From a virus (Duplodnaviria; Heunggongvirae; Uroviricota; Caudoviricetes): a stretch of DNA of 21,258 bases. Below, piece by piece: positions 1 to 13,859 of the stretch. The position numbers were made by a program, and so were the translations under genes. A model generated the notes under the pieces. It was not told where the DNA came from and did no database searches. It saw only the letters and a list, made by a program, of their open reading frames with translations. The stretch lies in the IMG/VR virus record IMGVR_UViG_2778261303_000012, positions 1 through 21,258 of that record. The stretch is one strand, 5' to 3'. The number at the start of each line of letters is the position of its first letter. Position 1 is the first letter of the stretch.

Positions 1-333
1 TCAATATGTTTTATCCATTACCACAGTAGTAATAGTACAGGCATCATTACTAATACCAATCTTAACACCATAACCTAAAAGATAGGCTTCATGTAATATC
101 TTATTAATATTATTATCACCAGATCGTGCCCAGTCAGAATTTCCACAATTACTTCCAATATCTATCAAACCATCAAACAAATAATAATATCTGTTATTAT
201 CAGAGTCCTGTGCCCAATCAGCCTTTATTGATTTAACGGTAACTACATTTGTATTAACATCAGCAGCAAACGCATAATCTGACATAGAACTAAAAATAAA
301 AAAAAGACCTACAACGCAATTAAACTTACTCAT
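1..333 (-). CDS. small secreted protein, function unknown
   Basis: 110-aa ORF. N-terminus MSKFNCVVGLFFIFSSMSDYAFA is a typical Sec signal peptide with an AxA cleavage site; mature part has two Cys. AT-rich like the neighbouring island genes. No family recognised. Confidence 0.5.
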   Translation of the reverse strand: MSKFNCVVGLFFIFSSMSDYAFAADVNTNVVTVKSIKADWAQDSDNNRYYYLFDGLIDIGSNCGNSDWARSGDNNINKILHEAYLLGYGVKIGISNDACTITTVVMDKTY

Positions 334-609: not shown

Positions 610-1167
610 TTAATTTTTAAACTGGGGCTTATACCAACCAGCAATAAGTGAAAATACCCTGAAATAGATCATAAATCCTGACATCATACACTCAATCAAG
701 TGATGACGAATAAAAGATACCTCAGAAAAACATTTGACTAAAATAAGTCTTCTTCCTGACCTGACAAAAAGCGTCATTATTAATGCAGTAATAACGCATA
801 AAACCAGTACATCTAGCGCAACATGCCGATGAATTACAGAAAACTCCAGAGCAGGAAAAAGCAAAAGCAGCAATATAGACAGAAAAAGTCTGATAAAACT
901 CAGATCCTGCACATTATTTCTTTGTTTGATCCACAAGAAGAAAACAACACCAGTTCCCCATCCAATCAGGAATATAACAATGACTGTAACAGCATAAAAA
1001 AGGCTTCTGGCCACATCATCTACGCCAGCCCCAACAACCCACCATGGGAAACCATAGTAAAAGGAAGTTCCCAAGCCATAGAAGTAAGCACTTCCCCACT
1101 CAAGACAGCCCATATAAGCAACAAAAAGTGAATAGTTTCTGAGCAGAGCACTGTCATTCATAGCCAA
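610..1167 (-). CDS. polytopic inner-membrane protein, function unknown (start codon uncertain)
   Basis: 185-aa ORF with several long hydrophobic segments (e.g. VTVIVIFLIGWGTGVVFFLWI, LFLSILLLLLFPALEF, LVLCVITALIMTLFV). Same strand and AT-rich composition as the 1..333 ORF. No family recognised. Confidence 0.45.
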   Translation of the reverse strand: MAMNDSALLRNYSLFVAYMGCLEWGSAYFYGLGTSFYYGFPWWVVGAGVDDVARSLFYAVTVIVIFLIGWGTGVVFFLWIKQRNNVQDLSFIRLFLSILLLLLFPALEFSVIHRHVALDVLVLCVITALIMTLFVRSGRRLILVKCFSEVSFIRHHLIECMMSGFMIYFRVFSLIAGWYKPQFKN

Positions 1168-1319
1168 TCCTCTAACAATTCAATAACATTTACTTGTTTT
1201 ACATAACAAATAAAATTCTATGTAGTCAAGAGACTTCATGCCAAGAGAAACTCATTGCACAATCGCCATCAAATTCAATGTTCTGTATCGTTTTCGAGCG
1301 TAAAAACCCGCCTATTGGC

Positions 1320-2624
1320 GCTGAGGGATCCCATAAATCAGCGCTAATAAACCAACACCATATTCTGGTAGGTTTTGGCGAGATGATTAAGAACTGTGCT
1401 CAGCACTGTTCGCCTTAAAATTAGCGGGGAGTGTCGTAAAACATTCTCCGCTAACGTCAGATACGAGATTACCCGCCGTGTTTTAATGCTGTTGGCCTGA
1501 TATCTCAGATGTAATCCTTTGTTTTCAGCATGATAGCCAATAAGCCACTGTACAATTGTACTCAGCGTCGCCAGTAGGTTCAGTACCAGCATTCTTCCCA
1601 CTGAACGACTGTAACTGTCACGCAGAGCGAACCCGAAGCGCTCGCTTTTTTCATCCCGGAAGTTCTGCTCGATTTGCATGCGACGGCTGTACAATTTCAT
1701 GATTTCCCGGGCTTTAAAGGCTACTGCTAAAGATAAGCCACGGTTCTTTTTCCGAAGAACGTCAATCATTATTTGGGATTTACGCTCTATGCGGCAACGT
1801 GAACGGCGATTCTTCCGGTCTTTCGGCTCTTTTTTATGTAAATAAAAATGGCCATCACACCGGGCATATTCCGAACGGGCAAGTGTACTCGTCCCCAGAT
1901 ATTCTGGTTTGCTTCTGGCCTGTAATTCCTGACGCCTGAACCAGTACTCACCTTTGCTGTCCAGCTGCATCTGGATATTTCCCCTGACACGACCGATAAA
2001 ATCCCATCCGAGTGACCTTATATGCCGGAACCATGCACTCTGGAAACCCGCATCGGTAACTATTATGACTCTGGCCACAGGGTTTACAGCCTCGGCAAGG
2101 GCATCCAGGAAGTTTTTTTGTATCTGCTAGTTCTGCTGTTTTTCTGACGGGACTATCCAGATTAACAGGGGAAGCGAGCGTCCATCGCAGAGCAGGCTGG
2201 CTCGGAGCACATGATGTTCCTGAGATGGATATCCACTCCAGTCAACGGCGATGACACAAAGAGATAGCTGGCTAGTCAGAATGGCAATAATATTTCTGAA
2301 AATCAGTGGGATATCGCGGTGAAGAGATTCATTACCGAGCAGTCGGTCAACGCGTTCGATTTTATTTCTGACCTGAGCCGGGCCAGGTAAATAACGCCCG
2401 ATGCTGGTCAGCGTCAGTGATGCGCCATTGATGAGAGCGATGGTGGCATCCAGCAAAGCATTTTGTCGGTATTTATGAAACGGTGCTAACGCATCGTGGA
2501 AAAAATTCTGACATACTTGTCGAGCAGACATAGAAGTGATCTCATTGATTGGTTGCACAAATCAGTAGATCACAAAACTCTATGACTGTCTTTTTTACCC
2601 GCCAATTACTGGGGATTCCTCAGC
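1320..2624 (-). mobile_element. IS4-family (IS10-like) insertion sequence, about 1.3 kb
   Basis: Imperfect terminal inverted repeats: left end CTGAGGGATCCCA at 1321, right end GGGGATTCCTCAG at 2611..2623 (reverse complement CTGAGGAATCCCC), resembling IS10 ends as recalled. A 10–11 bp direct repeat (c)gcctattggc flanks the element at 1309..1319 and 2624..2634, consistent with a target-site duplication. The internal ORFs align to IS10 transposase from memory (e.g. YS+RMQIE, DAGF, IDRLLGN motifs). Confidence 0.8.
1344..2558 (-). pseudogene. IS10-like transposase interrupted by a single in-frame TAG
   Basis: ORFs 2127..2558 (143 aa, N-terminal part) and 1344..2078 (244 aa, C-terminal part) are in the same frame. 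The only break is an amber codon (cta on plus strand at 2127..2129). The 16 codons between them translate to QIQKNFLDALAEAVNP, which continues the IS10 transposase alignment; total length about 403 codons, matching a ~402-aa IS10-type transposase. Confidence 0.8.
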
Positions 2625-2867
2625 GCCTATTGGCAGGTTTAAGCTGTGTGGCGAAGTGACCACTCTTAACACGATACAATAGTTTTTGCGTACGCGTTAG
2701 CATTTTTGATGGAAGTTAATGGTTGTTAATCTTATACTCAGTAAACAAAATTTATGCCGCCTTGAGCATGATGCGACATTAGGCACATGTTTGGATCTTC
2801 CTCGAAGATTCGTGCGGTAGCTATGCTCAAAATCCAATCAGCTCATAAAACATACTATGGGTTTTAA

Positions 2868-3617
2868 ATGCTCATTCCAACATCTCTATCAAAACAACCA
2901 GTAATCGAAGCTGCTTTCGAAATGCGTTTTTCTAAAGAAACACAAATATCGGAAATAGTTCCAGGGTTTCTTTTTCACGCTCTAGGTTGTACAAAACCAG
3001 TAATTAGTTTACCACCCAGTCAAATACCTAAAAATGTTCGTGAGGGAGATGAACAATTACATTACGCAGTTGTCAGTCGCCTCGAAATCGAAGGGTACTA
3101 TATTGGACTAAGTGACCATGGTGTTGTTGTATCCACCAGCACCAAATATCAAGGGTGGAGTCATTTTAGAGAAAAAATCATTCATGTATTAAATGAGCTT
3201 AACAAATTAAATTTAAATGACAACATCATCCGCTACTCATTAAAGTATGTAGATTTTTTCCCAAAAGAAGACGATTCTAATTTATTTGATAAGCTAAACG
3301 TCAGCTTAAATATGGCTGGCGAGTCTATGTCTAATTATCCGATCAATATCAGAATCGATAAAAATGAAGGCGCATTTCTAAATATAATTCAAATATTATC
3401 TCATGCTTTAGTCATGTCAGATAATGGAGAATTTAATAAAAAAGGACTAATCCTAGACATAGACAGTATTAGGCAAATCACTAATACTGATGAAATAGAT
3501 AAGTTTAAAAACGAACCCAAAAAAATTCTTGATGATCTTCACTCCTGTAATAAATTAGCTTTCTTTAGTTGCCTTAAAGAGTCAACAATTCAAGAACTAG
3601 AACCATCCTACAAATAG
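2868..3617 (+). CDS. hypothetical protein, cassette gene A (249 aa)
   Basis: Long ORF, first gene of a three-gene AT-rich operon. No catalytic motif recognised. An unverified recollection of TIGR04255-like proteins is too weak to use as a call. RBS is weak and an alternative downstream start is possible. Confidence 0.6.
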   Translation: MLIPTSLSKQPVIEAAFEMRFSKETQISEIVPGFLFHALGCTKPVISLPPSQIPKNVREGDEQLHYAVVSRLEIEGYYIGLSDHGVVVSTSTKYQGWSHFREKIIHVLNELNKLNLNDNIIRYSLKYVDFFPKEDDSNLFDKLNVSLNMAGESMSNYPINIRIDKNEGAFLNIIQILSHALVMSDNGEFNKKGLILDIDSIRQITNTDEIDKFKNEPKKILDDLHSCNKLAFFSCLKESTIQELEPSYK

Positions 3618-3632
3618 AAATGGTGGTATGAT

Positions 3633-3977
3633 ATGTATCCGTCTCATCATGTTTATCGAGCTCAACTTCAAGTATTAACTTTGGTTTTATATGGTCTGCA
3701 TATAACAGCATTAACAGACATTGCCCAAAATCAACAGCATGGTCCTCAACAAAGTTTAATCGTCAAAAATCACGCTTTGGAGTATAAGTCTTCAACTACC
3801 GATTCAGTTCATTCCATCACACAAACATATAAAGCAGGGAGCACAATCTCAGTTGATCAAAGACTTGCAGTCTCGATGACAAACTTTTATGAAAAATTAT
3901 CAACAAACCAGGTGTCTTTAGGCAGTGAAATAAATAAAGTCGTTCATGCTTCACTGTGGGATTTATACTTGGATTAA
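3633..3977 (+). CDS. hypothetical protein, cassette gene B (114 aa)
   Basis: ORF 15 nt after gene A stop, same strand and AT-rich composition; a GGTGG-like Shine-Dalgarno precedes the ATG. No family recognised. Confidence 0.5.
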   Translation: MYPSHHVYRAQLQVLTLVLYGLHITALTDIAQNQQHGPQQSLIVKNHALEYKSSTTDSVHSITQTYKAGSTISVDQRLAVSMTNFYEKLSTNQVSLGSEINKVVHASLWDLYLD

Positions 3978-3980
3978 GTG

Positions 3981-4595
3981 ATGAGTAATAACATTTTTGA
4001 TATCGAGAAATTCAAAGATCAAATTCCATATTATTTAACAGCTCCTCAAAAAGAAGGGCTAATAAATGCACTTAGAGATTTCCCTGAAAACACTAACTAC
4101 TACCTTACCAATTATCATGATGATCTGAAAAATGCTGCACTTCAGGGAGATATATTTAAGGAGCTTACAGTATATTCAATTAAAGGGACTAAAAAAACAC
4201 GAGGAATTATATTAAGCAACAGTTGCGATATAGATACAAGTAATAATCGTGATGTGCCAATGCGTGCAGTCTTTGCTCCGTTAGTAAGTTTATCTAAGTT
4301 CGAAGCTATTCTTCTCTCCAACGGAGTTTCTAAGACTTCAATAGATAGCAAAATTGATGCTATAAGGAAGCAGTTAATTACTAATATTTTTTATCTTCCT
4401 GAATCAGACAACTTAGAAGAATGCATCGTTTTTCTTGATGATGTATACCAATTACCAACGGAAGAATTACAAAAACTCTTGAATGATAAATGCAAAGCCA
4501 TAACTTTAAGTCAAGTTGGTTTCTACATTTTACTATTCAAAATATCTATTCACTTTTGTAGATTCCATGAAAACATACAACGATTCGATCATTAA
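3981..4595 (+). CDS. hypothetical protein, cassette gene C (204 aa)
   Basis: ATG at 3981 directly follows gene B stop (TAA 3975..3977; a GTG at 3978 is an alternative start), suggesting translational coupling. Followed immediately by a terminator hairpin. No family recognised. Confidence 0.55.
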   Translation: MSNNIFDIEKFKDQIPYYLTAPQKEGLINALRDFPENTNYYLTNYHDDLKNAALQGDIFKELTVYSIKGTKKTRGIILSNSCDIDTSNNRDVPMRAVFAPLVSLSKFEAILLSNGVSKTSIDSKIDAIRKQLITNIFYLPESDNLEECIVFLDDVYQLPTEELQKLLNDKCKAITLSQVGFYILLFKISIHFCRFHENIQRFDH

Positions 4596-4614
4596 GGCGG
4601 TACTACCGCCTTTT
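4596..4614 (+). terminator. rho-independent terminator after the cassette
   Basis: GGCGG-tacta-CCGCC hairpin followed by TTTTATTATTTT. Lies in the 25-nt gap between the convergent cassette gene C and the Q-like gene. Confidence 0.6.
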
Positions 4615-4620
4615 ATTATT

Positions 4621-4965
4621 TTACACAAGTATACTTACAACCCCCTCTATAAAACCGATTGCGGTTTGCAACTCCTTCCTAATAGTGCCATCAGAGCACC
4701 TTCTCTTTTTGGCAATAGTGCGTAATGAGATACCAATAACAAAGTGGGCTATGATGAGCTCATATTCCTCTGGTTTATACCTTCTCAACCGAGCCACACA
4801 ACTGTCTATCATAATGCCTTCGTCATCATCACACTGAATCCGTGACTTTTTGCCATGAGGTAAAAGCCCCTTGAAGCCTGCTGCTACCGGCTGCCAGTCC
4901 ACACCACTGTTGTCTGCTGCAGCCCATGCTCCCCAGCGGTCCAATACTTCATACATATCACGCAT
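4621..4965 (-). CDS. lambdoid antitermination protein Q-like (QuuD type)
   Basis: Start moved to ATG 4965 (ORF-track start at 4980 is TTG); GGAG RBS 8 nt upstream. N-terminus MRDMYEVLDRWGAWAA..GFKGLL....KSR.QCDDD matches my recollection of DLP12 QuuD (MRDIQMVLERWGAWAA...). Last gene of the minus-strand early operon. Confidence 0.7.
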   Translation of the reverse strand: MRDMYEVLDRWGAWAAADNSGVDWQPVAAGFKGLLPHGKKSRIQCDDDEGIMIDSCVARLRRYKPEEYELIIAHFVIGISLRTIAKKRRCSDGTIRKELQTAIGFIEGVVSILV

Positions 4966-4983
4966 CAACTTACTCCACAAAAA

Positions 4984-5979
4984 TCAGGCCAGCACGCCAA
5001 TTGCCAGCGCACGATCGATAAAACGAAATATCAGCTCCAGCTGGGAGCCATACCTCTCTTCAAATGCCACGGTATCCGCATGCAGCTCGTCGTGATGCTT
5101 TCTGCACAAAGGCAACACAAAAAGGTCATGCGCTTTTGTTCCCATTCCACCCTGACCGTAACCTATCAGGTGGTGGGGATCATCAGCGGGCTTTCCACAA
5201 CATGCACACGGCTGTGTCTTAACCCAGCGCGTGTACTTTTCATTAACCCAGCGGCGACGTTTTGGGCGTAACATAAAAGACTCCGGCGACTCCGGATCCA
5301 CTTTCAGCGCCAGCACCTTTTTCGCTTTATCCTGGATAATGCTGGTGGCAGGAACCGAAGGCACAAGGTCACTCTCCCGGGTGACAGACGGCACAACAGG
5401 CTTCGGTAATCTCAGTGCCTTACGGGCTGCACTTTCCGGTAAGGCATCCGCCAGGTCATTACGAATCAGCCACCAGCACAGTTCCGGCATTGTCACAACG
5501 TGACTATCATCAAAACCGAGATCCCGACGCACAACAGACAACACCCAGCGGGCACAGTTATCCGTTACCATTGATTCCAGCCGTTCCGTGAACTGATCGC
5601 GCAGCTGGTTATCGCAGTGCCAGCACAGACGGATTGCGCCCGGCGCGTGTCGCATTGTTGTCATGTTCTCGCTGTGCCAGTCGGAATGAGGCCACTGGCA
5701 GCCTTTTTCACGAAGTAACCAGCTTTCAAGACATTCCACGCCACCAGCACGACGGATCACTGCCTCATTGCGGAACACGGCCCGAACGGCAGGATCATCC
5801 GCCAGCGGTTGTGATGCCGCCGGAACGGCACCACTGGCGAAAGATGAATAACGTTCCGGCTCAGGCTCCAGCAGGACACGCCCCTGCATAAACAGGGGCA
5901 TCAGCTCTGAACCTGGCCTGAACAATACGATCCCCATACGCGGGGCAATTTCAGGGGTCAGTAGTGCTCTCACGGTCAC
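4984..5979 (-). CDS. DUF968 / YdfU-family prophage protein with C-terminal Cys/His (HNH-like) motif
   Basis: 331-aa ORF, GTG start with GAGG RBS. C-terminal CACCGKPADDPHH...PLCRKHHDELH cluster typical of YdfU-like proteins found next to Q in Qin/Rac-type prophages. Confidence 0.75.
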   Translation of the reverse strand: MTVRALLTPEIAPRMGIVLFRPGSELMPLFMQGRVLLEPEPERYSSFASGAVPAASQPLADDPAVRAVFRNEAVIRRAGGVECLESWLLREKGCQWPHSDWHSENMTTMRHAPGAIRLCWHCDNQLRDQFTERLESMVTDNCARWVLSVVRRDLGFDDSHVVTMPELCWWLIRNDLADALPESAARKALRLPKPVVPSVTRESDLVPSVPATSIIQDKAKKVLALKVDPESPESFMLRPKRRRWVNEKYTRWVKTQPCACCGKPADDPHHLIGYGQGGMGTKAHDLFVLPLCRKHHDELHADTVAFEERYGSQLELIFRFIDRALAIGVLA

Positions 5980-5980
5980 C

Positions 5981-6790
5981 TCAATGAACGGTATCGAGCA
6001 GCTTTAACAGCTCAGGGAATCGGGATTCGAAGAAATGCGGCTGCGTCTCGCGCGGATTTGCGGGACTGGTGATGTTCTTGCCGAACATGCAACCTTTCGA
6101 CGTCAGCGACCAGAATTTTTTGATGTTGTTAATCGCAGTGCGGCTGTATCGTTCACGTTGTTCAACGATCCCCAGCTTCGCCATCTGGTGATATGCCTGA
6201 TTAGCTGTCAGGCGGATACCATACTGCTTCAGCAGTGCACTCAGTGACAGCGTGGGGCGGCTTGAGCCATCAGGCGCGTCAGCAGGAGCATCAATGGCAT
6301 AGCGCGGTGCCAGATTCGGTAAGCCAACAGCATCCTGGAGTTTCTGACAGGCACCAAGCACTGAAGAGTTAGACAGGTTTAATTCCCGGCGCATAAAGTC
6401 CAGCAGAATCACACCAGCCTGCATCTTGTCAGCAGCCTGTCCGGATAATTTTTCCGGTGCGCTGGTTACCATGTCGAAAGTACGGATCACCTTCAGATGG
6501 AATGACGGGCTGATCCACATTGCATAGGCATACACCAGTTCCTTGCAGACATACGTTCCCCGTTCATTTCCCCCATGAATCACACTCACCGGGTCAACAC
6601 CCAAATTCTGGGTGTTGGTCAATTCATGAACAAGCTCAACAGTTTGTTGGCTGGAAAGAAACTTTCCCGGCTCCTTGGTTCTGGCATTTGCACCAGATGC
6701 TACTGCTGCGCGATGCAGATCGTTCAGGCTGTAACGCCCATAAGCATCACGACGAACTTCAATACCATCAATGACCATCAGATTATTCAT
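5981..6790 (-). CDS. KilA-N domain antirepressor-like protein
   Basis: Start placed at ATG 6790 (AGGAG RBS 9 nt upstream) rather than the GTG at 6823 that would overlap rusA. N-terminus MNNLMVIDGIEVRRDAYGRYSLNDL...GTYVCKELVYAYAMWISPSFHLKV is a KilA-N signature; C-terminal half resembles antirepressor C-domains. Confidence 0.8.
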   Translation of the reverse strand: MNNLMVIDGIEVRRDAYGRYSLNDLHRAAVASGANARTKEPGKFLSSQQTVELVHELTNTQNLGVDPVSVIHGGNERGTYVCKELVYAYAMWISPSFHLKVIRTFDMVTSAPEKLSGQAADKMQAGVILLDFMRRELNLSNSSVLGACQKLQDAVGLPNLAPRYAIDAPADAPDGSSRPTLSLSALLKQYGIRLTANQAYHQMAKLGIVEQRERYSRTAINNIKKFWSLTSKGCMFGKNITSPANPRETQPHFFESRFPELLKLLDTVH

Positions 6791-6809
6791 ACTTCGTTTC
6801 TCCTCTTGA

Positions 6810-7199
6810 TCAGGCGGCTGCACCCGCCGTTTTCTCGTACTTACTGATAGTGATCTCGACCTTCCCTTTCGGGATAACCGGTCCCCACTCCACCAGCATT
6901 CTTTTCACCTGACTGTCGTCTTCCCACACACCCGCGTGGGTCAGGGCGTCAAACAGCGCCTTGTTATAGTTGTCCAGATCGCGGATCCGGTTATCCGGAG
7001 GAAACAACACGATCTCCACTGAAGCAGGTGCCGACGTTGGTTTCGGCAGACGACGTAACTGCTCAACTATTGCTGCGCACGCCGCGCTCTGGAATTTTCG
7101 CCCCGCCGAGCTTATCAGGCTCTTACCAGCAAACGCCCCTTTGTTGGGGTGTCGCCAGTACGTGTTCACGCTGGGCGGAAAAGGCAGGATCAGCTTCAT
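6810..7199 (-). CDS. rusA: RusA-family Holliday junction resolvase
   Basis: 129 aa. LILPFPPSVNTYWRH...DLDNYNKALFDALTHAGVWEDDSQV matches the RusA signature (PPS.N.Y, DxDN, D-rich C-terminal half). ATGA overlap with the upstream gene. Confidence 0.85.
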   Translation of the reverse strand: MKLILPFPPSVNTYWRHPNKGAFAGKSLISSAGRKFQSAACAAIVEQLRRLPKPTSAPASVEIVLFPPDNRIRDLDNYNKALFDALTHAGVWEDDSQVKRMLVEWGPVIPKGKVEITISKYEKTAGAAA

Positions 7200-7522
7200 A
7201 CTTTCAGGTCCCTCTCATGTAACCAGTGGGTTGCACGCAGCCTTGCGTTTTCCTCACCGGCAAGCAGTGCGCGGATAATCCCGACCGCCTCGCTGTCGTC
7301 GTCCTTCACCGCGGTATGAAGCGTTATCCACCGGGCCACGCCACGCTTTATCGTGATGACGCCTTTTTTCTCCAGTGCGCGAAGATGCTCCACCGCTGCA
7401 TTCACTGAACGGTATCCCAGCATGGTTGCCACCTCCTGATTGGTTGGCGGGAAGCCACGTTCTTTCTGATAAGAAATCAGCATATCCAACACCTGCTGCT
7501 GGCATTGAGTTAACGTCGTCAT
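7196..7522 (-). CDS. LexA N-terminal DNA-binding-domain-only protein (winged HTH), no peptidase domain
   Basis: 108 aa. LTQCQQQVLDMLISYQKERGFPPTNQEVATMLGYRSVNAAVEHLRALEKKGVITIKRG closely follows the LexA DNA-binding domain pattern; the ORF ends before any S24 domain. ATGA overlaps at both ends. Confidence 0.6.
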   Translation of the reverse strand: MTTLTQCQQQVLDMLISYQKERGFPPTNQEVATMLGYRSVNAAVEHLRALEKKGVITIKRGVARWITLHTAVKDDDSEAVGIIRALLAGEENARLRATHWLHERDLKV

Positions 7523-8172
7523 GCCGCCATCTCCCTGACCAGTTTTTCCGCCTGCTGGCGAACCTGCGCCAGAAACGCCTCACCACATGCCTCAAGTTCA
7601 TCGCGCCCGATGTAGCTGATTGCCGGTCCCTTCCAGGTCTTGTCAAAAACAGCAATAGCACCAGCGAAAAAAGCTCCTGTCGGCACCTGCTTCTCGTCCT
7701 TCGGGATAAACCAGGCAGGCAGTTCAAAACCAATACGCCCGCGAATAAAAGCAATATGGTCCGCATCTTCCGGCCACCACACTTCGCTGGTGGCAGCTTT
7801 GATCAGGAAAACATAGCGCCCGCCCTTATCACGCATGGCACTGGCATGTTTCATGATGTAACGCATGCCGGTGATGTATTGCCCCTCATGCTGACTGGCG
7901 CGGCTGTATGGAGGATTACCAAAGGCAGCACCTTTAAGCTCCGCAAGACGTTCTGACCAGTCATGCGCCAGCGCGTTGTCTTCCGCCGTGTAATACGCGG
8001 CACATTTGGCGTTATCACCGTCAGTGAACAGATCCAGAACAAACGGACCAAACAGGGTGTTAATTCCCCAGAAAATGTTGTCCGGCGTGCGCCACTGATC
8101 GCCCACTTCCTTCAGTTCATGGGCTGGTTTGTTCCGCAGTTCCACCAGCGCCTGGCAATATTTATTACTCAT
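7519..8172 (-). CDS. phage Dam-type DNA N6-adenine methyltransferase
   Basis: 217 aa with FGNPPYSR (NPPY catalytic motif IV) and overall resemblance to phage Dam-family (PF05869-like) enzymes. ATGA overlap with upstream gene. Confidence 0.8.
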   Translation of the reverse strand: MSNKYCQALVELRNKPAHELKEVGDQWRTPDNIFWGINTLFGPFVLDLFTDGDNAKCAAYYTAEDNALAHDWSERLAELKGAAFGNPPYSRASQHEGQYITGMRYIMKHASAMRDKGGRYVFLIKAATSEVWWPEDADHIAFIRGRIGFELPAWFIPKDEKQVPTGAFFAGAIAVFDKTWKGPAISYIGRDELEACGEAFLAQVRQQAEKLVREMAA

Positions 8173-8660
8173 TCAGCCCCCACGTAATTCCCTGACAGAT
8201 ACCACTCTTCACCCGATGCAGAGCGCTTGCTGCTTTGCCGTAAGCACCGCTCACGACGCGCCAGAAAATTGTTTCGTTCTGGCTGGGAGTGGCTTTCACG
8301 GAATGCCGCCATCCACACCGTTGCGGCACGACGGTATAAGCCCCTGGACTCCAGTTCTTCCGCCTGGCGGGTCAGGCACAAAATCACCCGGGGATCGTTA
8401 GTGCCGACATAGAAATTGCGCACAGGTCTGGTTTCACGAACTGGTTGTGGTTCCGGCTCCTGCGCTCTCTCAGTCAGGCGTGGGAAATGTCTGCGTGTAT
8501 CTCCTTCACAACGGTGAGCCACACGCCCACTCTGACGTAACTTGCTTGCTGACTGCAGAACGCGCTGCCGTGAGTAACCTGCAAAAACATCCGCAATGTC
8601 TCCGGAAGTACACCCCGGATGGGCTTCAATGAATTTCTGAACTTCATTCAAAAGACTCAT
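8169..8660 (-). CDS. PerC-domain transcriptional regulator with N-terminal extension
   Basis: C-terminal AEELESRGLYRRAATVWMAAF...ARRERCLRQ matches the PerC/Pch signature (GLW/YRRAA..W ... RR.YC). Start placed at ATG 8660 with GGGGG RBS; a GTG at 8666 is the alternative. Confidence 0.55.
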   Translation of the reverse strand: MSLLNEVQKFIEAHPGCTSGDIADVFAGYSRQRVLQSASKLRQSGRVAHRCEGDTRRHFPRLTERAQEPEPQPVRETRPVRNFYVGTNDPRVILCLTRQAEELESRGLYRRAATVWMAAFRESHSQPERNNFLARRERCLRQSSKRSASGEEWYLSGNYVGAE

Positions 8661-8662
8661 GA

Positions 8663-9481
8663 TCACCCCCTGAATCCTGCCGGGATCTGGCTGTAGTCCA
8701 CGTTGTCGTAACTGGCTTTGAAGTACGTGTCCTCGCGTCTGGCTGCAGATACCGCAGGAACTTCCCAGGATTCTTCGAAATGACGATCTGGACCAAAGAA
8801 CGTGACAGCCTGTTTCACAAATTGTGTGCCGCTATTGCCCATCGCAGATACCCAGCCCGCGTAGCGTTTCACACCTTCCAGCATGGTTTCGGGGTTTACC
8901 CCCTCGTTCAAACGGGCTTTCCAGACTTTGAAGGCTGCAGATTTTGAATTGCCACCAGCACGTTTGGGATATGCCAGCCATGCCTGCTCAAACTCCGGAG
9001 AGTATTCCGGTCGGTTTGAACGAACTAGCACGGACTCATCAACTGATGCACCAACAGCTATTGGTTCATTGACTGGTTCTTTGACTGGTTCAAAAGAGTG
9101 ACTGGTTCTGGGTGAATCTCCTGCACTACCCCCTGGTGCAACTCCTGCACTACCTGGTGAATTTGCTGCACCAGATAGTGAATTATTTGCACTACCCCCT
9201 AGTGAATCTCCTGCACCATCCAGATGAAGGAGATAGATATTACTTGAGTTACCTTTTTCACCTTTCCGGGTGACTTTTTTTACCAGCCCGGACTCACAGA
9301 GGGCCGCAATATGATTCATCACAGAACGTTTGCTAATCTCGCACTGATCAGCGATATGCTGATAGCTGGGCCAGCACTCGCCCTGATCGCTGGCATTATC
9401 AGCCAGCTTAATCAGAACCAGTTTTCGCAATGGATTTCCCACTCGAATTTTCATCGCTTTAACCATCAGCTCCATACTCAT
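8663..9481 (-). CDS. phage replication initiator-like protein (N-terminal wHTH, low-complexity linker, C-terminal domain)
   Basis: 272 aa, GGAGG RBS. N-terminal HTH-like region (KLVLIKLADNASDQGECWPSYQHIADQCEISKRSVMNHIAAL); central Gly/Ser/Ala-rich linker encoded by tandem DNA repeats; position between Rha and the downstream early genes is typical of a lambdoid replication module. No P/DnaC-like partner gene seen. Confidence 0.65.
   Translation of the reverse strand: MSMELMVKAMKIRVGNPLRKLVLIKLADNASDQGECWPSYQHIADQCEISKRSVMNHIAALCESGLVKKVTRKGEKGNSSNIYLLHLDGAGDSLGGSANNSLSGAANSPGSAGVAPGGSAGDSPRTSHSFEPVKEPVNEPIAVGASVDESVLVRSNRPEYSPEFEQAWLAYPKRAGGNSKSAAFKVWKARLNEGVNPETMLEGVKRYAGWVSAMGNSGTQFVKQAVTFFGPDRHFEESWEVPAVSAARREDTYFKASYDNVDYSQIPAGFRG
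9068..9225. repeat. iteron-like imperfect direct repeats inside the replication gene (candidate ori)
   Basis: GACTGGTTC repeated three times (about 9071, 9083, 9100), then four copies of (a/g)GTGAAT(c/t)T..(c/t)TGCAC (about 9110, 9165, 9177, 9201), plus repeated CTCCTGCACTACC; an AT-richer stretch follows at 9225..9285. Confidence 0.5.
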
Positions 9482-9702
9482 GCAGCACCTCCGAGATGCT
9501 TCATGTTTTTTCCGGAGCGAAAGGCTATAAGCGGCATACTGACGCGGTAACTACGGCCCAGCGGTTCACAAATCACCTTCTGACATTCACGGTCAACCAG
9601 GCTAACACGTAGAACATGCCCTTCAGGTGTGGTGTACCACTGACCCGGACGAGGACAACGGAAAGTCTGATTGGTAAACCGTTTGAAAATATTCCGGATC
9701 AT
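9478..9702 (-). CDS. hypothetical 74-aa protein, translationally coupled between rha and the replication gene
   Basis: ATGA overlaps at both ends (Rha stop / its ATG at 9699..9702; its stop / replication-gene ATG at 9478..9481). Contains a CxxxP...C pattern; no family recognised. Confidence 0.5.
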   Translation of the reverse strand: MIRNIFKRFTNQTFRCPRPGQWYTTPEGHVLRVSLVDRECQKVICEPLGRSYRVSMPLIAFRSGKNMKHLGGAA

Positions 9703-10256
9703 TTGCGCCCCCTTACCTCTGAAGGGTTCAGCAACAAATTTATGAGGCAGGCCAGTGCCGAAGCATCATTAATATAGTCATACAAGCTAACAGCCAGCGG
9801 AGATTCGGCTTTTGCCAACATAGGATAAAGCTGCTGCAGCCAGACCTGATGAATTGATGAAATGTAGGAATAGAGAACGCTGGCGTTATGTGCAACGTCG
9901 CTCAGTACAGAGGGCTTTGAAAGCTGTTTCTCCATCTGGTTAAAGGCATTGATGTATGCCTCTTTGAACTGGGCAGCACGTTTACCCGTGAAACCCATAG
10001 CAAGAAACGCAAAGCCGTCGCGAGTGATTTGATAGCAAGGAAGCTTGCGTGTACCACCGTTCGGTTGATTTACCGAAATAGATGTCTCCGCAAAATTGCG
10101 GGCACAAAACTCAGGGGAACAATCCAGAGTACGGATCTTTTTCAGCACATCGTCGTGACGCTTGGAGAAGAAGTTTGCAACAGCTAAAGAAGTGGTAACG
10201 GCTTGGCCGTTGTCAATGGTGATTTCAGGTTGAGTAAGGGCTGGGATCGTAGCCAT
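9699..10256 (-). CDS. Rha-family phage regulatory protein
   Basis: Start set at ATG 10256 (GGAGG RBS 8 nt upstream), giving 185 aa: MATIPALTQPEITIDNGQAVTTSLAVANFFSKRHDDVLKKIRTL...GTRKLPCYQITRDGFAFLAMGFTGKRAAQFKEAYINAF is the Phage_pRha signature. The 499-aa ORF in the track is a read-through artefact. Confidence 0.8.
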   Translation of the reverse strand: MATIPALTQPEITIDNGQAVTTSLAVANFFSKRHDDVLKKIRTLDCSPEFCARNFAETSISVNQPNGGTRKLPCYQITRDGFAFLAMGFTGKRAAQFKEAYINAFNQMEKQLSKPSVLSDVAHNASVLYSYISSIHQVWLQQLYPMLAKAESPLAVSLYDYINDASALACLINLLLNPSEVRGRK

Positions 10257-10586
10257 GATGGCAGCCTCCGTTGACAGTGAAAAACTTCCACCACCGGAAA
10301 CGCCAATTTCACTGGTGGTGAACTGGACGGGGTTGGCGTAACCGGCGTCAACGGAGACCGGCGCACCTTTCGGTGCCCCCGTCCAGCCCACCATAATCTG
10401 GATGTGAACAAATGCGGACGATAAAAAAGACGCTGGCGCGTCATACATCGCCGTTGACAATTTCAGGACGCCAATCCCGGCACCTGATTTTTCAGGTGCT
10501 GAAGCAGTGTATACTCGAAATAAATCATGATCAATAATGATGCGAGGATGGGGGTTAACCGTTATCTCAAAATAAGGAGATACAAC

Positions 10587-11752: not shown

Positions 11753-12005
11753 GGCTTACCTCCTGTTCCTGTGGTTTAAACCCATTCTGGTTTTGGCTAG
11801 ATTGAAAACGTGCCGGATAAAGAATCTGCATTTCGCTGATTTCACCCTTAAAAAAATTGGCCAGACGTTCTGCAAGATCGATAGATGGAATTTGTTCCAG
11901 TCTTTCAATACGACTCAGCGTCGCTGGATTGACCTGAACGCCCGCAGCAACATGCTGCAAAGTAAATCCGTGCGCCTTACGCACATTCCGTAATGGTGAT
12001 TGCAT
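11745..12005 (-). CDS. Cro-like HTH repressor
   Basis: 86 aa, GGAGG RBS 5 nt from the ATG. HTH segment FTLQHVAAGVQVNPATLSRIERLEQIPS; divergent from the cI-like gene across an operator-rich intergenic region. Confidence 0.7.
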   Translation of the reverse strand: MQSPLRNVRKAHGFTLQHVAAGVQVNPATLSRIERLEQIPSIDLAERLANFFKGEISEMQILYPARFQSSQNQNGFKPQEQEVSRG

Positions 12006-12019
12006 ATAACCTCCACATA

Positions 12020-12082
12020 TTGCGTGATGATCATATTATTTCACGCAAATATTTTGCGCAAGTTGATTTGCTTAACACGCAA
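12020..12082. promoter_or_regulatory. OR-like operator/promoter region between cro and cI
   Basis: Palindrome TTGCGTGA-N13-TCACGCAA (12020..12048), self-complementary TTGCGCAA (12054..12061) and TTGC-N7-GCAA site TTGCTTAACACGCAA (12068..12082). The cI ATG at 12103 has no obvious Shine-Dalgarno, so a leaderless PRM-type transcript is possible. Confidence 0.55.
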
Positions 12083-13313: not shown

Positions 13314-13446
13314 GCGGTACCAGTTTGTACACTTGCTTCCGGCTGGTACCGCTCTTTTTACAAAACAGAGAAGAGCATCACCGGACGACGGGCTCATAAC
13401 CCAATCCACCCGGGCGGCTGCCACCGCAGGTGTTCTTCTCTGTTTT
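13314..13446 (+). other. two adjacent long hairpins in the untranslated leader of the early-left operon
   Basis: Hairpin 1: GCGGTACCAG (13314..13323) pairs with CTGGTACCGC (13343..13352). Hairpin 2: AAAACAGAGAAGA (13362..13374) pairs perfectly with TCTTCTCTGTTTT (13434..13446) around a GC-rich 59-nt loop; ends 50 nt before the first gene. Confidence 0.45.
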
Positions 13447-13496
13447 GTGGAGAAACCAACCGACCTTGCAGGGTCGATATGATGAGGAGCAGCAAA

Positions 13497-13859
13497 ATGG
13501 CTAGCGAACGCAGTACTGATGTGCAGGCATTTATCGGGGAGCTGGACGGCGGCGTATTTGAAACCAAAATCGGCGCTGTTCTCAGTGAAGTCGCTTCCGG
13601 TGTGATGAACACGAAAACCAAAGGTAAGGTCTCGCTCAACCTGGAAATCGAACCGTTTGATGAGAACCGTGTGAAAATAAAACACAAACTCTCATATGTT
13701 CGCCCGACTAACCGCGGGAAAATTTCCGAAGAAGACACCACCGAAACGCCGATGTATGTCAATCGCGGTGGTCGCCTGACTATTCTGCAGGAAGACCAGG
13801 GACAATTACTGACTCTTGCCGGTGAACCTGACGGAAAACTCCGCGCAGCAGGTCATTAA
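13497..13859 (+). CDS. YfdP-like prophage protein (120 aa)
   Basis: Start set at ATG 13497 (GAGGAG RBS, 7-nt spacing) rather than the 197-aa track ORF, whose N-terminal part crosses the leader hairpins. Size and position before a YfdQ/YfdR/YfdS-like block match the CPS-53 arrangement as I recall it. Confidence 0.55.
   Translation: MASERSTDVQAFIGELDGGVFETKIGAVLSEVASGVMNTKTKGKVSLNLEIEPFDENRVKIKHKLSYVRPTNRGKISEEDTTETPMYVNRGGRLTILQEDQGQLLTLAGEPDGKLRAAGH

Follow-up and report, generated by a model that had tools for sequence, protein, structure and literature searches.

In the 21,258-nucleotide (nt) stretch of viral DNA analyzed here (Caudoviricetes; IMG/VR record IMGVR_UViG_2778261303_000012, positions 1 to 21,258; hereafter the window), three plus-strand genes, which we call A, B and C, are packed against the 3' end of a gene encoding a Q-family antiterminator (Table 1). 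This A-B-C trio is one real, compact, horizontally mobile and strictly co-inherited unit. An initial annotation, made without database searches, had described three tightly linked genes of 249, 114 and 204 amino acids (aa), separated by gaps of 15 nt (A-B) and 3 nt (B-C), closed by their own terminator and convergent to a Q-like antiterminator at a distance of 25 nt from its stop. The open reading frame (ORF) coordinates agree with these sizes and gaps, a hairpin (AAGGCGGTACTACCGCCTT) followed by a T-run overlaps the stop codon of gene C, and the stop codons of gene C and Q are separated by 25 nt. For gene C, the ATG start chosen by RefSeq gives 204 aa, and a GTG at 3978 would give 205 aa. The AT-rich contrast with the prophage core was also borne out, as the GC content of the cassette is 0.333 (GC3 0.25-0.28) versus 0.525 for the core (4621-10000).

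Table 1. Coordinates of the cassette genes and of the features that border them in the window.
Feature	Position	Strand	Description
Gene A	2868-3617	+	249 aa; ORF; TIGR04255 family; predicted pseudo-dimeric TATA-binding protein (TBP)-like alpha/beta fold
Gene B	3633-3977	+	114 aa; ORF; hydrophobic N-terminal segment, variable linker, conserved C-terminal ~40 aa ending ...LWDLYLD
Gene C	3981-4595	+	204 aa; predicted MazF/Kid/CcdB-like fold with N-terminal helical extension and two-helix insertion
Intrinsic-terminator-like hairpin and T-run	4594-4612	+	Closes the cassette, 8 nt short of the Q stop codon
Cassette-specific upstream region	2702-2867	+	Presumed site of the cassette's own promoter; homology to sister prophages stops at ~2701-2712
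Late-leader remnant (putative late promoter/terminator region)	2636-2701	-	Cut on the left by the insertion sequence (IS); from alignment to strain ACN002
IS4-family insertion sequence	1304-2640	-	Flanks the cassette, not a member of it; 29-nt inverted repeats; DDE_Tnp_1 match; RefSeq "IS4 family transposase"
Q-family antiterminator gene	4621-4980	-	PF06530, E=1.4e-44; right edge of the slot

Co-inheritance of the three genes

The cassette was present in 92 of 5,426 complete Escherichia coli genomes, always whole, at least 99% identical and with the same flanks, and no partial cassette was found among them. A megablast search of 50,697 phage records returned no match. Genes A and B are intact in the window, in strain ACN002 and in strain RM8082, which holds the closest relative of the window. 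Gene C is likewise undamaged in the first two; in RM8082 a 1-nt difference in length shifts its frame, and the annotated gene is only 264 nt long (positions 13382-13645 of the RM8082 locus, L001). This natural frameshift, with A and B intact, indicates that a strain can do without C and is compatible with C being either dispensable or toxic.

Outside E. coli, protein C has 469 relatives in a 90%-clustered database and 997 representative clusters in a 50%-clustered library (E<=1e-3), all of about 200 aa and spread over Proteobacteria, Desulfobacterota, Bacteroidota, Ignavibacteriota and other phyla. Protein look-ups gave 11 contexts (12 loci), including Allochromatium, Trinickia, Klebsiella (three prophage loci from one look-up), Magnetomoraceae, Symbiobacter, an ENA contig, Comamonas, Henriciella and Burkholderia. 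The order A-B-C and the gene sizes were kept in all of them (A 245-256 aa, B 102-127 aa, C 201-227 aa), with A down to 26% identity; on the ENA contig (L010) the gene call for A was 294 aa long and B emerged only on translation.

A species scan with one genome per species yielded 77 loci, scored with hidden Markov models (HMMs) built from our own alignments, and in 67 of these the DNA upstream of C was 1,150 nt or longer. Gene A lay directly upstream of C on the same strand in 62 of the 67 (61 detected automatically, plus L021, which was first flagged as lacking A through a spurious C match and has A at 4892-5641). The gap between A and C was 296-418 nt (median 335) and, except in two degraded loci, encoded a B-like ORF of ~100-120 aa ending ...NLWDLY, ...DLESLYE or ...NFWDLI. 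Four of the five loci negative for A, from metagenome-assembled genomes (MAGs) of Chloroflexi, Bacilli, Tenericutes and an unclassified lineage, had genes of 241-244, 93-112 and 188-197 aa (L075 380-2102; L090 4834-6423; L091 4834-6441; L092 4761-6378), and the fifth was a lone truncated C. The same-sized three-gene arrangement was thus kept in 66 of 67 loci. Co-occurrence across genomes, proposed as a check in the initial annotation, therefore gave a clear result: the trio is nearly always together, in many phyla. In the distant Firmicutes, Tenericutes and Chloroflexi trios, TIGR04255 similarity was undetectable in the first protein (241-244 aa), and for this reason we do not claim that A is universal.

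The trio occurs sporadically over distant phyla and in marine, groundwater and gut environments. As is usual in mobile and defense regions, its neighbors include integrases, transposases, AlpA-like excisionases, group II introns and the nin and lysis regions of prophages, as well as PemK/MazE, HicAB, ParE and BrnT toxin-antitoxin modules and the Wadjet genes JetB/C. In Comamonas it adjoins a lysis cassette. In three Klebsiella lambdoid prophages (L005-L007, 4905-6615) its place is inside the nin region, where it runs opposite to the phage genes and adjoins a DNA_pol3_theta-like gene. As this is a different slot from that in E. coli, the cassette moves between hotspots.

Families and predicted folds of the three proteins

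The initial annotation had found no assignable motif in any of the three proteins, and this did not stand. The match of protein A to NCBIfam TIGR04255 spans its full length (model positions 2-251 of 252, protein residues 7-244) and, at 96.2 bits (E=2.6e-27), exceeds the curated cut-off of 30; "TIGR04255 family protein" is also its RefSeq name. Each of the three falls in a PHROG family whose function is unknown (phrog_5728 for B), and the fold of C could be recognized, as described below. Profile searches otherwise returned little: there was no Pfam or PADLOC match, and across Pfam, PADLOC and solved-structure sequence searches A yielded only the function-less TIGR04255 name and B and C nothing. 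The predicted fold of A is a TBP-like double saddle with conserved charged residues at alternating strand positions, and its identity between E. coli and Desulfobacterota is ~30-35%.

Protein B begins with a hydrophobic segment (median KD15 1.79) and ends in a stretch of ~40 aa to which conservation is restricted and which carries the motif ...NLWDLY; the linker between the two is variable and of low complexity. The family is acidic, with a median isoelectric point (pI) of 4.5 and a net charge of -7. To judge from its sequence, the N-terminus of B may act as a signal peptide, anchor the protein in the membrane or form a buried segment for docking. On sequence inspection, no hydrophobic N-terminal segment was seen in A or C. 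In the distant trios L090-L092, B is without the hydrophobic N-terminus and ends ...FDYYD or ...FKYYD.

Protein C is the most conserved of the three, with ~45-50% identity between the E. coli and Desulfobacterota proteins. The motifs LQGD (54-57), SNxCD (79-83), N88, R90, FAP (98-100), Q131, TLSxxGFY, K187 and HFCRFHE (191-197) are invariant in it. The C proteins of L090-L092 retain QGD, SN[ST]CD and APL and have lost HFCRFHE, so the first three motifs mark the universal core; HFCRFHE is confined to the main clade of C. An AlphaFold2 (AF2) model of C (predicted local distance difference test score 85.9) matched the MazF/Kid/CcdB toxin superfamily by two methods. Foldseek gave probabilities of 0.92-1.00 and target-normalized template-modeling scores of 0.60-0.69, and the toxin core of the model can be superposed on MazF, Kid or CcdB. 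Structure prediction, which had been suggested as a further check, gave C a recognizable fold.

The interval between Q and the holin gene

Immediately after this cassette, E. coli ACN002 carries lambda-family holin, endolysin, spanin, terminase, portal, capsid and tail genes. Base 1 of the window corresponds to position 9402 of the RM8082 locus, and the genes to the immediate left of that point encode holin, lysozyme, terminase and head proteins. The cassette had been proposed to replace the phage late region; since the late region adjoins it within the sister prophages, this region simply lies beyond the edge of the window and has not been replaced.

In the sister prophages, which share the Q family, DUF968, KilA-N, RusA, LexA-like and methylase genes and the holin WP_001120496/7, the cassette has the 3' end of Q on one side and, on the other, a conserved leader that precedes the holin gene. 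Related E. coli prophages carry alternative cargo in this position, all of it on the plus strand and convergent to Q. Strain 100181 has a TIR protein and a caspase-family protein, which matched the PADLOC ThsB-like TIR and caspase models. A pairing of TIR with a caspase-like protease has been described as type IV Thoeris (bioRxiv 10.1101/2024.10.24.620036). Two variants hold an NA37 nucleoid-associated-like protein with a hypothetical protein of ~400 aa, and O104:H4 2011C-3493 holds two hypothetical proteins of 308 and 182 aa (together L014 1587-3979, L015 2243-4445 and L016 3000-4461). Neither the NA37 pair nor the O104:H4 pair matched PADLOC, and both are equally good candidates for uncharacterized systems.

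Around 240 nt upstream of the holin gene (about 11840-12080 of the ACN002 locus, L002) are conserved in the four prophages that we aligned (ACN002, 181.1, strain 20 and 100181), and the cargo starts just beyond. This stretch contains a terminator-like hairpin on the minus strand (in ACN002) and is the putative late promoter and leader. In that case the cargo would be placed between Q and its target promoter, outside the late transcript. Among prophages with different cargo, homology breaks at ~2701-2712 of the window on the left and, on the right, inside the last ~10 codons of Q at ~4651 (matches in other prophages begin at query position 2020 of 2632-5000). These breaks delimit an exchangeable module of roughly 2702-4650.

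The Q-to-late-leader interval is thus a demonstrable defense-cargo slot in this E. coli prophage family, and the trio belongs to the operational class of prophage defense-hotspot cargo, since alternative cargo that includes a recognized defense system lies between the same conserved flanks. This agrees with the earlier proposal of a moron-type insert at the junction of Q and the lysis genes. The trio and the type IV Thoeris pair share the insertion site, the convergent orientation and the compact operon form, and they are interchangeable between near-identical prophages. However, they have no protein families in common, and no Thoeris signaling chemistry is recognizable in A, B or C.

In the lineage of the window, an IS4-family element and a further moron region lie between the cassette and the lysis genes. 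The element is bounded by the inverted repeats 1304-1332 and 2612-2640, its transposase is split into two ORFs (1344-2078 and 2127-2558), and the breakpoint relative to ACN002 places its insertion exactly in the GC-rich hairpin of the conserved late leader. Through this insertion, late transcription in this lineage may no longer be coupled to the toxin and lysis genes downstream. The toxin gene lies just outside the window (RM8082 locus 8593-9384) and encodes a RefSeq "enterotoxin A family protein" that matches PF01375, the heat-labile enterotoxin (LT) alpha chain, at E=1e-101. Adjoining it, window positions 1-333 (-) hold a 110-aa ORF with a signal-peptide-like N-terminus and no Pfam match, which is plausibly the B subunit of an LT-like AB toxin that the prophage would carry between the Q region and the holin gene. 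A 185-aa ORF at 610-1167 (-) has many hydrophobic segments and no Pfam match, and its RM8082 counterpart, which has an internal stop, is annotated as a pseudogene. Rfam matches at gathering level in the regulatory region of the prophage were to C4 antisense RNA (10311-10398, -; 82.3 bits) and to the Hfq-binding small RNA isrK (10423-10499, -; 72.7 bits).

Possible functions of the cassette

The PADLOC-DB v2.0.0 search returned zero families for A, B and C at E<=1, in a library that excludes DefenseFinder models and systems described after 2023; the TIR and caspase cargo of the sister prophage served as a positive control. The Rst_3HP system ("three hypothetical proteins") was considered, and the only test of it was this lack of a PADLOC match for A, B and C. 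Literature searches found no paper mentioning TIGR04255, the three RefSeq accessions or the PHROG identifiers, and nothing specific on MazF-like three-gene defense or on Q/holin hotspots. In the DefensePredictor paper, "TIGR04255 family protein" occurs only in a supplementary table, which does not amount to validation, and the three accessions are absent from the supplements.

An undescribed defense or abortive-infection system had been the suggestion of the initial annotation. It was reasonable and is now much better grounded: the slot, the co-occurrence and the lack of a match to any PADLOC or Pfam system make it credible, and we infer an anti-phage function from location, distribution and fold. 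By a slight balance of probability, the cassette is a defense or toxin-antitoxin (TA)-type module. That this horizontally mobile, autonomously terminated, antisense moron encodes, more exactly, a TA-like anti-phage system of the abortive-infection type is a plausible explanation, for which the scales are evenly poised. The antisense orientation and the cassette's own terminator fit expression in the lysogen.

In the proposed mechanism, C would be an effector built on the MazF/CcdB toxin scaffold with a different conserved site (QGD and SN[ST]CD, with HFCRFHE in the main clade). B would be a regulator or antitoxin-like partner that restrains or positions C in uninfected cells, and A, as sensor or scaffold, would link a phage cue to the release of C. 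The acidic C-termini of MazE, CcdA and Kis, which bear a Trp residue, lie in grooves of their toxins. The acidic tail of B, with its near-terminal Trp and Tyr (...NLWDLY), recalls these toxin-binding termini. The gradient of conservation, with C above A and A above B, fits a conserved effector with faster-evolving regulators. This specific assignment of sensor, restraint and effector roles is tentative, and we hold it to be doubtful. It is possible, with a likelihood somewhat short of even, that A-B-C is an undescribed, phylum-spanning tripartite immune system in which A senses infection, B (possibly membrane-tethered) gates the response and C executes it with a new active site. Such a site may comprise QGD, SN[ST]CD and a possible Cys/His metal site, with an activity not yet seen for this fold.

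The nearest functional analogs are divergent MazF-like domains inside defense systems, compared here with C by description only: GajC of type II Gabija (Liu-DS1; PMC13069673), SMA (PMC12829572) and CalpT. Their partners are unrelated to A and B (the GajB helicase for GajC, none for SMA, and a Lon-SAVED protease and a sigma factor for CalpT), and these systems have no TIGR04255 protein and no B-like protein. With toxin-antitoxin-chaperone (TAC) systems the trio shares three co-transcribed genes, of which one is toxin-like and one small and labile-looking; the third component of TAC systems is a SecB-like chaperone, which the trio does not have.

Several observations weigh against an anti-phage, TA-like explanation. 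The absence of a PADLOC match means that the trio is not a known system, not that it is a system. The promoter scan of the plus strand found no cassette promoter above its threshold, and in Henriciella the trio is exceptional in having ordinary metabolic neighbors. The B protein of the window itself is barely acidic (pI 6.6, net charge -1). The N-terminus of B resembles a signal peptide or membrane anchor, with an uncharged stretch of ~24 aa and, in alphaproteobacterial homologs, AxA-like motifs; if the C-terminal part of B were exported, it could not neutralize a cytoplasmic C. In CalpT, the MazF-like domain belongs to a protein with a regulatory role within the CalpL-CalpT-CalpS effector. 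Similarity of C to MazF, PemK or CcdB also found no support in sequence. C had no Pfam match at E<=1; across 56 members of its family, Pfam gave nothing consistent and no PemK (PF02452) match even at E<=10; MazF was absent from the matches of a profile search against PDB sequences; and hhalign against a small alignment of six MazF/PemK sequences gave a non-significant probability of 3%. The model has a tight beta1-beta2 hairpin (strands 57-66 and 69-77) where MazF has its long catalytic loop, and C is not basic (pI ~6.2).

These last two properties make MazF-type RNase activity doubtful. MazF/PemK catalysis requires a long beta1-beta2 loop with an Arg and a Thr or Ser on beta3. In C, a Lys or Arg precedes the invariant G75 and the beta3 position after FAP is Ile, Val or Leu, as judged from the predicted model and a reading of the alignment, not from residue-level superposition. 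The candidate identity of C as a MazF RNase was rejected because the profile-profile comparison was not significant, and we claim likeness at the level of fold only. C also differs from MazF/PemK/Kid and CcdB toxins (type II TA) in being twice their size, in its N-terminal helical extension and two-helix insertion, and in its conserved residues (QGD, SN[ST]CD and HFCRFHE), and the trio has a third protein, of 249 aa. Based on the predicted model, we therefore place C in the CcdB/MazF fold superfamily but outside the MazF/PemK and CcdB families. It is kept at this level because sequence-level support is lacking and the MazF catalytic loop is absent from the model.

The alternative that survives best, although we consider it unlikely, is that the trio is a tripartite addiction module that stabilizes the prophage or island by post-segregational killing and has no direct anti-phage activity. 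The toxin fold of C would suit this, as would a small, mostly acidic B encoded directly upstream of C in reading frames that overlap or nearly abut, the position of the cassette on integrative elements beside integrases, and the strain in which C is frameshifted with A and B intact. However, the slot elsewhere holds a signaling immune system (TIR and caspase) and not a maintenance module, three obligate genes that include a 249-aa protein exceed the needs of a classical type II pair, and C has neither the MazF catalytic loop nor a basic charge. Many TA modules also defend against phage, so addiction and defense do not exclude each other. A type III TA system, with a repeat RNA as antitoxin, was also considered and was rejected, as positions 2400-4800 contain no notable tandem repeats and no Rfam match.

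The exported appearance of B raises a further alternative, namely that the trio is a lysogenic-conversion or fitness cassette apart from defense or toxicity, for example one that acts on the envelope or provides a secreted factor. A signal-peptide- or anchor-like N-terminus is present in nearly all proteobacterial B homologs, but it is absent from the Firmicutes and Tenericutes versions, and A and C have no such segment. The Q-to-lysis interval also hosts virulence morons, with an LT-like enterotoxin a few kb away in this lineage, the defense library gave no match and one chromosomal context has metabolic neighbors. In contrast, sporadic spread over distant phyla and environments disfavors a host-niche virulence factor, and the toxin fold of C and the TA and defense neighbors point elsewhere. 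We regard this alternative as quite improbable.

Least probable of all is that the trio serves its carrier phage as an anti-defense, superinfection-exclusion or lysis/lysogeny-timing module: all three proteins are PHROG families that recur in phage genomes and the genes sit in phage regulatory regions (the Q-holin junction in E. coli, nin in Klebsiella, beside the lysis cassette in Comamonas), but they oppose phage transcription and have their own terminator, which suits expression in the lysogen and not lytic growth, they also occur outside prophages (in small integrase islands and beside TA genes, Wadjet genes and a transposase), and superinfection exclusion would in effect be defense, so that it partly overlaps with an anti-phage role.

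The trio has one component with a toxin fold and two without functional precedent. If it is an anti-phage system, this would give a first function to TIGR04255, for which none was reported in the literature searched, and to three PHROG families. It would also be a widespread addition to the bacterial immune repertoire, with about 1,000 clusters at 50% identity for C alone, and another rebuilding of the MazF/CcdB toxin scaffold, here controlled by two partners. As a site of defense cargo, the Q-to-late-leader slot can be mined for further uncharacterized systems.

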